A program made the translations under genes and the position numbers. The notes beneath the pieces are model-generated. The model was not told the origin of the DNA and did not search any database. It saw only the letters and a list, made by a program, of their open reading frames with translations. A stretch of DNA of 64,000 bases from Escherichia phage NHEP11. The stretch lies in sequence record PQ511149.1; one strand, 5' to 3'. How positions within the stretch are numbered: position 1 is the stretch's first letter; the number at the start of each line of letters is the position of its first letter. This document shows positions 51,154-52,679 of this stretch, piece by piece.

Positions 51154-51573
51154 TTATGCGAAAGCAGCCGGGCTATATTTTTTAATTTGGAATTCAGGAA
51201 CTACCATGAACTGACCAGCGAAAACGATGTTATAAAGCTTAACACCATCTTCTACCCAACGGTCGCTAATAAATCCGGCGATTTGCTTAGTTTTCCACGG
51301 CGTTCCATCAGTTGCCGCAGCAATAGTGAATTCATGGTCTTTTTCAACAGAAACTGATCTGCATAGTCCCCATTTGAACGCTTTTTCTTCTGGCTCAATG
51401 AATTGGCTTGAGACGTAGCCAATGTTGCCATCAGCATCACGAACTTTAACTTGATGTGGACTAAAGAGTCCACAACTTACAGAAAGAACTTCAACCAACT
51501 TCCCAGCAACTTTAGAGCGAGAAGCAACAGATACATATACGTAATCACTTGTAGAGAGATTTGCAATATTCAT
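51154..51573 (-). CDS. hypothetical protein, tandem paralog family member A
   Basis: 139 aa; shares SRSK.AG.LVEV, KW.LC and GFISD.WVEDG.KLYNIVF.G.F.VV motifs with next two ORFs. Confidence 0.5.
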   Translation of the reverse strand: MNIANLSTSDYVYVSVASRSKVAGKLVEVLSVSCGLFSPHQVKVRDADGNIGYVSSQFIEPEEKAFKWGLCRSVSVEKDHEFTIAAATDGTPWKTKQIAGFISDRWVEDGVKLYNIVFAGQFMVVPEFQIKKYSPAAFA

Positions 51574-51582
51574 AATAATTCC

Positions 51583-52143
51583 TTAAGCTTTACGAGGAGA
51601 CACATAGCGAGTGATTTCAGATTCTTCAACAACTCGGAAGTCACCTAAGAATACAATATTGTATAGCTTTTTACCATCTTCAACCCATTGGTCGCTGATG
51701 AAGCCGCACATAGTATCAGTTGTGCTTGGATAGCCATATTCGTCGATGTAATCAAATTCTTTATCGGTTATAAATTCAACGCCTTTGCAAAGGGCCCATT
51801 TGAACTGTACATTAGGCTCAACGATATCGTTTGAAGCAAAGTGTGCAGGTGCAACTTCTTCGCTTGAAGCAAATTGGACTCGTATATGTTTTTCCAGGAA
51901 TTTAGGACTTACGTAAGCATACTGGGCATCTTGTCCGCCAAAACTGGGCATGATTCGAACTTTAACTTCTTTAACACGTCCCATGCCGTTAGTACGAAGC
52001 CCTGCTACTTCAACCAGACGACCTGCAGCTTTAGAACGAGAAGCAGGAGATACACGAAGGATTTCACCAATAGTAATCATAATTTCTCTCTCTTTGTTTA
52101 AATTGAATTCACTATACTCCATCCATCCTTGGATGTACAACAT
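51583..52143 (-). CDS. hypothetical protein, tandem paralog family member B
   Basis: 186 aa; same motifs as 51154-51573. Confidence 0.5.
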   Translation of the reverse strand: MLYIQGWMEYSEFNLNKEREIMITIGEILRVSPASRSKAAGRLVEVAGLRTNGMGRVKEVKVRIMPSFGGQDAQYAYVSPKFLEKHIRVQFASSEEVAPAHFASNDIVEPNVQFKWALCKGVEFITDKEFDYIDEYGYPSTTDTMCGFISDQWVEDGKKLYNIVFLGDFRVVEESEITRYVSPRKA

Positions 52144-52679
52144 TAATTAAGGATATTAACCACAGCACTACGTGGAACTACACTAAAATCACCGGCATGA
52201 ACAACGTTCAGAAGTTCAACCCCATCTTCAATCCACTGATCAGTTACCCATCCATTTACTGGACCAGCGAACGGGCGTCGAATTGAAACATATTTACACA
52301 ATAAATCAGTAGGCTCAATAGGCTTAATCAGAGTACCGTACATACAAGCGATATCCATATCAATACAGATGTCTTTAACTGGTTCTACTTCTTCAATCAA
52401 CAGTTCAAAGTCGGTGCTCGGAAGGGCGGTAGTAGAAATTGTACCATATGAATTTTTAATTTCTAAGAATAACCAAGGGCCTTCAGCTTGTTTGATGAAG
52501 TTAACAATAGTGAAACTATTACCTTGAGTGGCACCTAAAATTTCACAAAACTTTTCATAAGCTCGCACTGAAGCACCGTACCAGTTGATTTGTTTTTCGT
52601 CTTTCAGGATGTAAGTAGCCGTAGTATTGATATTCATAATGGTTTCCCGTTTGGTTAAGATAGAAAGATTATACTCCAA
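52143..52679 (-). CDS. hypothetical protein, tandem paralog family member C
   Basis: 178 aa; C-terminal GWVTDQWIEDGVELLNVVHAGDFSVVP matches family motif. Confidence 0.5.
   Translation of the reverse strand: MEYNLSILTKRETIMNINTTATYILKDEKQINWYGASVRAYEKFCEILGATQGNSFTIVNFIKQAEGPWLFLEIKNSYGTISTTALPSTDFELLIEEVEPVKDICIDMDIACMYGTLIKPIEPTDLLCKYVSIRRPFAGPVNGWVTDQWIEDGVELLNVVHAGDFSVVPRSAVVNILN

Follow-up and report, generated by a model that had tools for sequence, protein, structure and literature searches.

The three consecutive minus-strand genes that follow dexA in Escherichia phage NHEP11 are real, selected paralogs of a family of DNA-binding host-takeover proteins. In the account proposed here, which is very probably correct as a whole, they form the cluster of early genes motB.1, motB and motB-like in a T4-like phage of the RB69 type (Mosigvirus). 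The initial annotation, which had read the genes as a tandem triplication of one paralogous family, was right in outline, and the finding is an ordinary one. The family, the paralogy and the layout with two motB genes plus motB.1 in RB69-type phages are already published or annotated. The common C-terminal domain of MotB and MotB.1 and the two motB genes plus motB.1 of RB69 were described by Patterson-West et al. 2021 (PMC7827196). The small new details are the promoter repeats that flank motB.1, the exchange of the motB pair between genera and the modelling of the common domain as Tudor/KOW-like.

Identity and gene order of the locus

The window is the whole stretch of DNA that was analysed (64,000 nucleotides, PQ511149.1). 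Judged by its sequence, it belongs to a Mosigvirus, an RB69/HX01-like T4-like phage, and its nucleotide identity to Mosigviruses is 95-97%. The gene order dda>dexA>motB.1>motB>motB-like>motB.2>cef>goF>39 matches the annotation of RB69 (RefSeq) and of HX01 gene for gene. The analysis confirmed three consecutive minus-strand ORFs at 51154-52679. They lie between dexA and cef, the early region in which Tevenvirinae carry the MotB family, and so within the dexA-39 interval, which is variable in T4-like genomes. The genes of the locus are the following:

49265..49690 (-), GoF-like paralog of 141 aa (RB69ORF005c type); PHROG 622, E 5e-21
49875..50285 (-), goF, 136 aa, with an LSm-like N-terminal domain; 76% identity to T4 GoF, PHROG 622, E 2e-39
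50570..51094 (-), motB.2 homologue of 174 aa; 34% identity to T4 MotB.2, E 3e-15; annotated motB.2 in RB69
51154..51573 (-), ORF1, second full-length MotB paralog (MotB-b, RB69ORF010c type), 139 aa; 40% identity to ORF2
51583..52080 (-), ORF2, motB orthologue (MotB-a), 165 aa, start ATG 52080; 45% identity to T4 MotB, E 2e-41
52143..52637 (-), ORF3, motB.1, 164 aa, start ATG 52637; 37% identity to T4 MotB.1, E 8e-26

The counterparts in RB69 are RB69p013/p012 (motB.1), RB69p011 (motB) and RB69p010 (MotB-like), in the same order and likewise flanked by dexA and motB.2. ORF1 and ORF2 are 91% and 87% identical to the RB69 proteins, and the linker of ORF2 is 14 aa longer than that of RB69 MotB. 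The function of the genes had been called unknown, a statement that overlooks the named MotB family (Pfam PF17613) and the RB69 annotation motB.1 / motB / MotB-like. The motB.2 homologue has no sequence relation to the MotB family; it is placed downstream of the motB pair in the window and adjoins dexA in T4 and RB5.

Lengths of 139, 186 and 178 aa had been given for ORF1, ORF2 and ORF3. The first holds, whereas the other two are artefacts of taking the longest ORF, the true lengths being 165 and 164 aa. The N-terminal extensions of the two longest ORFs are translated early-promoter DNA with the -10 boxes inside them, and in HX01 a 2-nt indel within the extension breaks the reading frame. The extensions (MEY..NL.K.E.IM) were considered as a fourth common protein motif and rejected, as they are a translated promoter repeat that is frame-broken in HX01. 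The starts at ATG 52080 and ATG 52637 agree with the annotation in relatives.

Two further ORFs, at 49265-49690 and 49875-50285, had been proposed to resemble each other. Pairwise BLASTP does not bear this out (E 0.04, not significant), but profiles do: both ORFs match PHROG 622 and the alignment of the 141-aa ORF with GoF by hhalign gives a moderate link (probability 76%, E 2e-5 over 90 columns). The LSm-like N-terminal domain of GoF belongs to the same superfamily as that proposed for MotB.1 (PMC12152347).

A tandem pair of full-length MotB proteins

ORF2 consists of a basic KOW-like N-terminal domain, a linker of variable length and a C-terminal domain. It matches Pfam PF17613 with an E-value of 4e-37 (127.9 bits) over profile positions 2-157 of 162. 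Among relatives the length of this type ranges from 151 to 176 aa, and linker indels are the source of the variation. A PDB sequence search with ORF2 gave no relative, the best match being ribosomal protein S33 at E 0.92, so no solved relative was identified by that search.

ORF1 starts 9 nt past the stop of ORF2 and has its own AAGGA Shine-Dalgarno sequence. The two proteins are homologous end to end (40% identity over 159 columns, BLASTP E 1e-27), and ORF1 is 37% identical to T4 MotB. Pfam PF17613 matches ORF1 with an E-value of 8e-21 (75 bits) in two stretches, of which the best covers the C-terminal domain (profile 89-162), and PHROG 1671 spans the protein end to end (2-166 of 166). The AF2 model of ORF1 (pLDDT 88) has two beta-barrels. 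The full two-domain MotB architecture, a KOW-like N-terminal domain followed by the C-terminal domain, is therefore found in ORF1 and ORF2 and is missing from ORF3. The motifs SRSK.AG.LVEV and KW.LC had been assigned to all three ORFs; they are present in ORF1 and ORF2, and the SRSKAAG.LVEV motif of the KOW-like domain is invariant, whereas ORF3 has an unrelated N-terminal domain, and DLLCK stands where the other two have KW.LC.

In the tree, the ORF1 type forms a separate clade (96% bootstrap) outside all MotB orthologues. A copy of ORF1 at 80% identity or more occurs in 207 phage records, and the type is 139 aa long in 25 of the 26 near-full-length cluster representatives, the remaining one having 145 aa. 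T4 has no gene of this type. A compensated frameshift at the divergent ORF1 patch CGLFSPHQ was considered and rejected, as the DNA alignment has about 12 clustered substitutions and no indel.

The domain-shuffled MotB.1

ORF3 consists of a putative LSm-like/GoF-type N-terminal domain (about aa 1-84) fused through a linker to a MotB-type C-terminal domain (aa 108-164). It matches PHROG 2333 (E 2e-83), and its match to Pfam PF17613 (35 bits) is confined to the C-terminal part, at profile positions 78-153. With its non-KOW N-terminal domain and MotB-type C-terminal domain it belongs to the MotB.1 group (PHROG 2333; Category 2 of Patterson-West 2021), and its counterparts in RB69, Shf125875 and mar005P1 are annotated as motB.1. 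The AF2 model has a pLDDT of 79, with residues 86-108 disordered; the low-confidence linker carries the DMDIACMYGTLIKP motif. The N-terminal model (pLDDT about 85) contains strands 8-11, 42-49, 55-61, 67-73 and 80-83 and a helix at 26-37; these strands may correspond to the bent antiparallel sheet of five strands (LSm-like/SH3 topology) that marks the GoF/MotB.1/Frd.2 fold family.

The N-terminal domain of MotB.1 has been described as LSm-like, as in GoF (PMC12152347), and that of ORF3 is predicted as a small beta-sheet domain with one helix, a putative member of the T4 MotB.1 / GoF/Frd.2 LSm-like family (Kim et al. 2025). With the ORF3 model the T4 structure P39415 is recovered at E 6e-10, and the GoF structure of phage VR7 weakly (Foldseek E 0.02, probability 0.99). 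By profile comparison the N-terminal domain of MotB.1 is weakly linked to the GoF-like family of the 141-aa ORF (probability 29%, E 6e-4).

The reference motB.1 genes of T4 and RB69 are frameshifted within the C-terminal domain. In RB69 two frameshifts leave a 132-aa protein and a 29-aa peptide, whereas the window gene is intact (164 aa). Unlike the T4 reference protein, ORF3 has a complete C-terminal domain, and it also has an extra 20-aa linker insertion, in which the DMDIACMYGTLIKP motif lies. Deletion of T4 motB.1 gave no measured phenotype, and T4 MotB.1 was inactive in an RNA reporter assay (PMC12152347).

The common C-terminal domain

The GFISD.WVEDG-like C-terminal block noted at first in the three ORFs is borne out by pairwise alignment and by profile-profile comparison. 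Its copies are placed as follows:

51157..51381 (-), common C-terminal domain module, ORF1 copy
51586..51810 (-), common C-terminal domain module, ORF2 copy (alignment; hhalign)
52146..52316 (-), common C-terminal domain module, ORF3 copy (alignment; hhalign probability 98.8%)

The block G[FW][IV][ST]D.W[IV]EDG..L.N[IV]V..G.F.VV is found in all three proteins. In pairwise comparison ORF3 matches ORF1 with 55% over 29 aa (E 1e-10) and ORF2 at E 7e-10, and hhalign places the block far beyond chance (probability 98.8%, E 1e-16). All three ORFs pass the Pfam PF17613 gathering cutoff of 25 bits. The overlap of ORF3 with ORF1 and ORF2 is limited to the C-terminal ~55 aa. As its N-terminal domain is non-homologous, ORF3 is not a copy of the ORF1/ORF2 unit. 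The proposed tandem triplication is thus an oversimplification: a single tandem motB duplication gave ORF1 and ORF2, and the third gene is a domain-shuffled relative.

The three products are predicted to be small all-beta two-domain proteins, each with an SH3/Tudor-like C-terminal barrel of ~55-75 aa. The top structural neighbours of this domain are Tudor/PWWP/chromo-like barrels, whereas the HHpred prediction of 2021 for T4 MotB was a cold-shock-type OB fold. At least four kinds of N-terminal domain occur in fusion with the MotB C-terminal domain, and the ORF3 copy of the latter is 74-88% identical to the C-terminal domains of proteins with other N-terminal domains. When the domain profile was searched against 1.84 billion representatives, the only credible relatives were short two-domain proteins (about 100-250 aa) of the kind annotated in T4-like phages. 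Three long matches (570, 842 and 2408 aa) are MucBP, Ig and Calx-beta repeat proteins hit in multiple short stretches and were set aside as spurious.

Predicted early promoters and hairpins

Three promoter-like sites are associated with the cluster:

52668..52696 (-), early (sigma-70-type) promoter of motB.1, TTTACA-17-TATAAT; 11 of 12 consensus matches, the best of the region
52111..52139 (-), early promoter of motB-a, TGTACA-17-TATAGT; direct repeat of the motB.1 promoter
51099..51148 (-), promoter-like TTTACT-16-TATTAT with a strong hairpin (core CCTCTGGTT / AACCAGAGG); RNA fold -22 kcal/mol

The first two belong to a direct-repeat family (D1) of 64 nt with 70% identity and a spacing of 557. 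The spacer of the motB.1 promoter holds a 6-bp hairpin (CAACCA-agga-TGGTTG), and that of the motB-a promoter holds CATCCA-agga-TGGATG, a compensatory change with respect to the motB.1 copy. The motB.1 promoter is kept in five Mosigviruses and agrees with the PST/T4 PeSL consensus TTTACW-N17-TAYWAT (PMC4122927). The hairpin at 51099..51148 surrounds the -10 box, and it base-pairs with the Shine-Dalgarno sequence of motB.2; upstream of motB.2 in T4 and RB5 the same promoter-hairpin arrangement occurs with a different stem sequence. A promoter scan of the region gave 17 sites against 18.1 expected in shuffled sequence, which is no enrichment, so the promoter calls rest on position, quality and conservation and not on counts. 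No RNA family was found by an Rfam scan of 48500-55000 at the gathering threshold.

The arrangement resembles the PeSL cassettes (Arbiol 2010; Comeau 2014), in that repeated early promoters with a hairpin border a gene that some close relatives have and others lack. As in those cassettes, a repeated early promoter and stem-loop lie at the indel borders of close T4-type relatives, but the stem-loop placement is atypical: the PeSL stem-loop is a separate upstream terminator, whereas in the window the hairpin is found within the spacer of the motB.1 and motB promoters or, at motB.2, surrounds the -10 box. The two PeSL papers (Arbiol 2010; Comeau 2014) do not describe the window sites and do not mention motB or dexA. 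From these sequence predictions, the genes would be transcribed early by the host RNA polymerase. One sigma-70-type promoter would serve motB.1 and a second, near-identical one motB, and ORF1 would be co-transcribed with ORF2.

Function of the MotB proteins

T4 MotB was studied by Patterson-West in 2018 and 2021 and reportedly by Son in 2021. It is toxic in E. coli and binds DNA tightly and without sequence specificity; it copurifies with H-NS/StpA, and it raises the burst size about 2-fold (PMC6070864). In its presence H-NS footprints change, and a part of the H-NS regulon is de-repressed (PMC7827196). ORF1 and ORF2 align with it over the whole Pfam profile and share its predicted KOW-like N-terminal domain and C-terminal barrel, its position between dexA and cef and its early-promoter control. 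On the other hand, the window has two tandem copies instead of one, which are neutral to acidic overall and differ in linker length.

The computed net charge is +6 for T4 MotB, -2 for ORF2, 0 for ORF1 and -9 for ORF3, which makes an equivalent coating of DNA uncertain, especially for ORF1 and ORF3. The N-terminal domain of ORF2 has a net charge of +6 and is compatible with DNA binding, ORF1 and ORF3 less so. By homology to T4 MotB, ORF2 with its basic N-terminal domain would coat DNA non-specifically. This coating would remodel or compact the nucleoid, shift H-NS/StpA on the DNA and modestly lift phage yield. The neutral ORF1 and the acidic ORF3 may, with less certainty, be sub- or neo-functionalised relatives with the common C-terminal module. 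In the second MotB copy the basic charge of the N-terminal domain is gone, which argues against simple redundancy. DNA binding and an effect on H-NS are extrapolated to the Mosigvirus proteins from T4 MotB, to which ORF2 and ORF1 are 45% and 37% identical.

Another reading places the weight on the C-terminal domain, as a Tudor-like protein-protein module for homo-/hetero-oligomerisation or H-NS/StpA docking. The trio would then work as one system, with the module directing to one target three distinct heads that bind nucleic acids: a basic KOW domain in ORF2, a neutral one in ORF1 and a putative LSm-like domain in ORF3. The core of the domain is the most conserved part, invariant across the family, and is acidic (SDQWVEDG), unlike a DNA-binding face; the same domain sits on at least four kinds of N-terminal domain, and its Tudor/PWWP/chromo-like neighbours typically bind proteins or peptides. 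The copurification of MotB with H-NS/StpA points the same way, but it was possibly mediated by DNA, as the authors state (PMC6070864). In addition, T4 copes with a single MotB and with a MotB.1 whose C-terminal domain is truncated, and KOW/Tudor-like barrels bind nucleic acids too. This reading is considered unlikely. Its fuller form is somewhat less likely still: a docking or oligomerisation domain that is not primarily DNA-binding, and a cooperating or mutually regulating set on H-NS/StpA-DNA filaments in which the neutral-KOW MotB-b or the acidic LSm-like MotB.1 would modulate or antagonise the basic-KOW MotB-a, with promoter-repeat cassette swaps tuning the set to hosts.

Selection and proposed cassette shuffling

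By their dN/dS values (0.02-0.6 across the three genes; 0.03-0.26 for ORF1 and 0.02-0.35 for ORF3), all three genes are under purifying selection. Among otherwise near-identical Mosigviruses, dS is 3-5 times higher in ORF1 and ORF2 than in dexA and motB.2 on either side, and dN is much higher. Such a raised dS is a sign of alleles exchanged by recombination and not of faster adaptive change. S143_2 has no motB.1, and the stretch that joins dexA to motB there is a hybrid of both promoter repeats, with the deletion junction exactly inside the repeat; the repeats on both sides of motB.1 explain its exact loss. In RB5, a Tequatrovirus, the motB pair is 81-84% identical to that of the window at the amino acid level, while dexA (68%), motB.1 (55%) and motB.2 (43%) are less so. 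P0035 and P0205 are chimeras of N-terminal and C-terminal domains. The cluster would evolve through cassette shuffling, in which motB.1 is lost or gained by recombination between the promoter repeats, the motB pair has passed from one phage genus to another and unequal crossing-over gives rise to the domain chimeras.

A recent local triplication of one gene that now diversifies fast by positive selection, giving an anti-defence or host-range array, would suit the adjacency of the genes, their common block, the raised dS and dN of ORF1 and ORF2 and the location in a known hyperplastic zone. The divergence is old, however, with ORF1 40% identical to ORF2 and its clade outside all MotB orthologues; the N-terminal domain of ORF3 is non-homologous, all comparisons give a dN/dS well below 1 and the raised dS indicates allele exchange. 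The anti-defence role suggested by the initial annotation found no specific support: there is no match to a known anti-defence protein, and the documented activity of the family is DNA/H-NS binding in takeover of the host nucleoid. The tree and the dN/dS values largely refute this very improbable reading.

It is most improbable that ORF1 and/or ORF3 are redundant decaying copies retained by linkage only, since, against the missing ORF1-type gene of T4, the motB.1 loss in S143_2, the frameshifted references and the absent phenotype of the T4 motB.1 deletion (PMC12152347), the window copies are intact, with low dN/dS, a near-constant ORF1 length, an ORF1 copy in many phage records, an invariant C-terminal core and promoter and Shine-Dalgarno sequences in place, so that the genes are not pseudogenes.

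Implications

As a discovery, the locus matters little. Most field isolates, the window included, encode a complete MotB.1, unlike the T4 and RB69 references. The T4 reference gene is frameshifted in the common domain, and work with the 119-aa T4 protein may consequently overlook what the C-terminal domain does. The locus is a worked example of the evolution of the T4-like early region, with domain shuffling around a conserved small barrel, exact gene gain and loss through duplicated early promoters and the exchange of a two-gene cassette between genera.

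Locus Organization and Gene Starts

The minus strand carries all the transcription between 49.2 and 54.7 kb of the window. The genes of this region are the following:

53390-54703, minus, dda
52703-53380, minus, dexA
52143-52679 as the longest ORF, minus, ORF3 (motB.1)
51583-52143 as the longest ORF, minus, ORF2 (motB)
51154-51573, minus, ORF1 (second full-length MotB copy)
50570-51094, minus, 174-aa ORF (motB.2 homologue)
between the 174-aa ORF and goF, minus, cef
49875-50285, minus, goF
between goF and the 141-aa ORF, minus, zinc-ribbon ORF
49265-49690, minus, 141-aa ORF (GoF-like)
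47384-49201, minus, gene 39, fused, 605 aa

The phage is of the RB69/HX01 type (genus Mosigvirus), with 95-97% nucleotide identity across the whole 4.2-kb interval by megablast. As in RB69, genes 60 and 39 are fused into one 605-aa ORF for the topoisomerase II large subunit. Compared with T4, this gene lacks the split, the gene 60 bypass element and mobA and, unlike in HX01, no HNH endonuclease is inserted beside it (HX01 locus L001, 816-1499).

The initial annotation assigned 139, 186 and 178 aa to the three consecutive ORFs, and only the first length holds. The other two result from extension of the longest ORF through upstream promoter DNA. The -10 boxes of ORF2 and ORF3 fall within these N-terminal extensions, a 2-nt indel in HX01 disrupts the reading frame there and relatives are annotated from internal ATGs. 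The genes therefore encode 139 (ORF1), 165 (ORF2) and 164 aa (ORF3).

Family Assignment and Paralogy

The three proteins belong to the Pfam family PF17613 (MotB, "modifier of transcription"), with scores of 75 (ORF1), 128 (ORF2) and 35 bits (ORF3), all above the gathering cutoff of 25 bits. Among the PHROGs, ORF1 and ORF2 belong to family 1671 (MotB-like), whereas ORF3 belongs to family 2333. ORF2 is the orthologue of T4 MotB (45% identity, E 2e-41) and ORF1 is a second copy (37%, E 4e-24), while ORF3 matches T4 MotB.1 (37%, E 8e-26) and the 174-aa ORF matches T4 MotB.2 (34%, E 3e-15). The RefSeq entry of RB69 has exactly the same layout: motB.1 (RB69p013 and a 29-aa remnant, p012), motB (p011), "MotB-like" (p010) and motB.2 (p009). 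Two motB, one motB.1 and a 29-aa peptide were also described in RB69 by Patterson-West et al. 2021 (PMC7827196), who described a KOW-like N-terminal domain in MotB, recognised the MotB C-terminal domain again in MotB.1, and proposed that motB or motB.1 probably arose as a duplicate of the other. Given this annotation and the published MotB work, the feature is a rediscovery of a named and partly characterised family, and not one of unknown function as first proposed.

The three consecutive ORFs are related, as claimed, and the relationship is statistically solid. Homology between ORF1 and ORF2 spans their full length (40% identity, E 1e-27). ORF3 aligns significantly with ORF1 (E 1e-10) and ORF2 (E 7e-10) over the last ~30-55 residues only, a relationship that is secure at the profile level (hhalign probability 98.8%, E 1e-16). 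Only ORF1 and ORF2 carry the motifs SRSK.AG.LVEV and KW.LC; ORF3 lacks both. The initial interpretation (paralogs within a plastic early region) is thus right in outline, and the term "triplication" is wrong.

The proposed kinship of the 141-aa ORF and goF is borne out, as both match PHROG 622 and small family alignments of the two reach 76% probability over 90 columns. This fits the LSm-like fold family formed by the N-terminal domains of MotB.1, GoF and Frd.2 (Kim et al. 2025, PMC12152347). Compared directly, the MotB.1 N-terminal domain and the 141-aa family match only weakly (29%).

Domain Structure and the Shared C-Terminal Module

Sequence comparison detects no solved structure. AlphaFold2 models ORF1 (mean pLDDT 88, pTM 0.75) as two all-beta barrels (residues 11-60 and 73-133). 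In the ORF3 model (pLDDT 79), a disordered linker (86-108) separates an N-terminal sheet-plus-helix domain (1-84) from the C-terminal barrel, both of them confident. Among the top structural neighbours are the Tudor domains of ERCC6L2 and PHF19, the tandem Tudor domain of 53BP1, the KOW domains of Spt5 and PWWP domains.

A C-terminal domain profile built from the three window copies yields only 30 matches among 1.84 billion cluster representatives. About 26 are real, all in proteins of 100-250 aa; three long repeat proteins among the matches are spurious. The MotB.1-type domain keeps 74-88% identity behind at least four distinct N-terminal parts (lengths of about 145, 164, 180 and 250 aa), and is also joined to KOW-type N-terminal domains in proteins whose named members are from Klebsiella and Enterobacter phages. 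As the 2021 paper (PMC7827196) had outlined, the C-terminal domain is a shuffled module of narrow distribution.

A short motif, DMDIACMYGTLIKP, lies in the low-confidence MotB.1 linker (52320-52361, ORF3 residues about 93-106). It recurs at the extreme N-terminus of other proteins bearing the C-terminal domain (P0095, P0114 and P0086) and, in a variant form, in the group with KOW N-termini, and could represent a short linear motif that is mobile.

Selection and Expression Signals

Pairwise dN/dS values (Nei-Gojobori) of the window against HX01, RB69, Shf125875, S143_2, mar005P1, RB5 and T4 are 0.03-0.26 for ORF1, 0.18-0.60 for ORF2 and 0.02-0.35 for ORF3. Every comparison thus shows purifying selection on all three genes. 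The ORF1 type has a length of 139 aa in 25 of 26 near-full-length cluster representatives (145 aa in the other), with 82-98% identity. At 80% identity or more, this copy is present in 207 phage records, and 571 records hold only the ordinary MotB.

Predicted early promoters precede ORF3 (TTTACA-17-TATAAT, minus 52668-52696; 11/12 matches, the best of the region) and ORF2 (TGTACA-17-TATAGT, minus 52111-52139). Both are kept in 5-6 Mosigviruses and fit the PST/T4 consensus TTTACW-N17-TAYWAT (PMC4122927). ORF1 starts 9 nt past ORF2 and is preceded by an AAGGA Shine-Dalgarno, so its co-transcription with ORF2 is most likely. The dN/dS values, the near-constant length of ORF1 and these predicted signals give no support to the alternative of unexpressed pseudogenes.

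The T4 reference motB.1 (NC_000866; locus L002, about 4700-4830, minus) encodes 119 aa and stops at a +1 frameshift, caused by an extra G in TGGATTGGAAGATGG versus TGGATTGAAGATGG in RB5. The remaining conserved C-terminal domain (EDGVELLNVVHAGEYSVVPRSAVVAILN, then stop) is intact in the next frame. RB69 motB.1 (L006, 5320-5560, minus) carries two frameshifts, which also fall in this domain. The T4 and RB69 frameshifts could be genuine mutations of the laboratory strains or errors of early sequencing; the published T4 MotB.1 experiments were done with the truncated protein.

Promoter Repeats and Cassette Mobility

The motB.1 and motB promoters are direct repeats that flank motB.1 (core of about 26/30 identical bases, 557 bp spacing). 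S143_2 lacks motB.1, and its dexA-motB junction (L008, 2396-2460) fuses the two repeats exactly: the motB.1 promoter runs up to and including TATAAT and continues as the motB 5' leader. This junction points to recombination between the promoter repeats as the event that would remove or install the motB.1 cassette, resembling the PeSL-type mechanism of other T4-type phages (PMC2839356, PMC4122927). Both promoter spacers hold a hairpin of 6 bp with a 4-nt loop: CAACCA-agga-TGGTTG for motB.1 (minus 52676-52691) and CATCCA-agga-TGGATG for motB (minus 52119-52134). A compensatory base-pair change distinguishes the two copies, each of which is kept within its lineage across Mosigviruses.

A further, strong hairpin (-22 kcal/mol, core CCTCTGGTT/AACCAGAGG, 51099-51148, minus) pairs with the Shine-Dalgarno of motB.2 and encloses a -10 box, that of a promoter with the sequence TTTACT-16-TATTAT. 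In T4 (L002) and RB5 (L003), where motB.2 adjoins dexA, the same arrangement is found upstream of motB.2 with another stem sequence. It appears that motB.2 and its regulatory cassette changed position together.

RB5 is a Tequatrovirus with a dexA virtually identical to that of T4, yet it carries a Mosigvirus-type motB and motB-like pair (L003, 2518-3420, versus window 51154-52080).

Amino acid identity and dS between RB5 and the window
motB pair: 81% and 84%; dS about 0.6
dexA: 68%; dS 2.2
motB.1: 55%
motB.2: 43%

RB5 MotB is only 48% identical to T4 MotB, and the dexA and motB.2 that flank the RB5 pair are T4-type. This pattern indicates that a two-gene cassette was exchanged between genera, which contrasts with the reported lack of laboratory recombination between RB69 and T4-type phages. 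Among near-identical Mosigviruses, dS is 0.2-0.4 in ORF1 and ORF2, several-fold above dexA (0.05-0.1), which indicates allele replacement and not faster mutation.

Natural chimeras exist in the family: Shf125875 MotB (L007) joins a T4-like N-terminal domain to a Mosigvirus C-terminal domain, and in two metagenomic proteins the ORF1-type C-terminal domain follows an ORF2-type (P0035) or a T4 (P0205) N-terminal domain. They are consistent with unequal crossing-over between tandem copies, which the intragenic DNA repeats D2 and D3 could mediate. In a neighbour-joining tree whose deeper nodes are weakly supported, the ORF1 type stands apart as a clade of its own (96% bootstrap), to which none of the MotB orthologues of Tequatro-, Mosig-, Dhaka- and Gaprivervirus-type proteins belongs. 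The ORF1 copy therefore goes back to an old event, either a duplication or the stacking of a divergent allele.

Codons 34-41 of ORF1 (51451-51474) form a 24-nt patch with about 12 clustered substitutions and no indel, encoding CGLFSPHQ in the window and DPVFGRNE in HX01, RB69, RB5 and mar005P1. The window patch folds as a perfect 7-bp hairpin, GTGGACT-cttt-AGTCCAC. Sequencing error is ruled out, because phage NHEP36 has an identical ORF1.

Functional Implications

T4 MotB is a tight but sequence-independent DNA binder. [quoted passage not shown] It also alters H-NS footprints and H-NS-regulon expression (PMC7827196). The N-terminal domain of ORF2 is basic (net charge +6, versus +5 in T4 MotB). 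By homology, ORF2 would most likely coat DNA and perturb H-NS/StpA-DNA complexes early in infection. A further MotB paper, judging from its title, reportedly deals with DNA compaction and de-repression of H-NS silencing.

ORF1 and ORF3 may have sub-functionalised. That both act through the common C-terminal domain is a speculation of rather low probability; the core of this domain (SDQWVEDG...LYNIVF) is invariant and acidic, as would rather be expected of a surface for protein contacts. Simple redundancy is unlikely, since the N-terminal domain of ORF1 is neutral and ORF3 is strongly acidic (net charge -9).

A 366-aa ORF (46241-47341, minus), with no Pfam match, is 99% identical to RB69 ORF003c, the candidate arabinosyltransferase for arabinosyl-hmC DNA (PMC6024577). 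The DNA of this phage is therefore probably arabinosylated, which would bear on what its MotB proteins bind.
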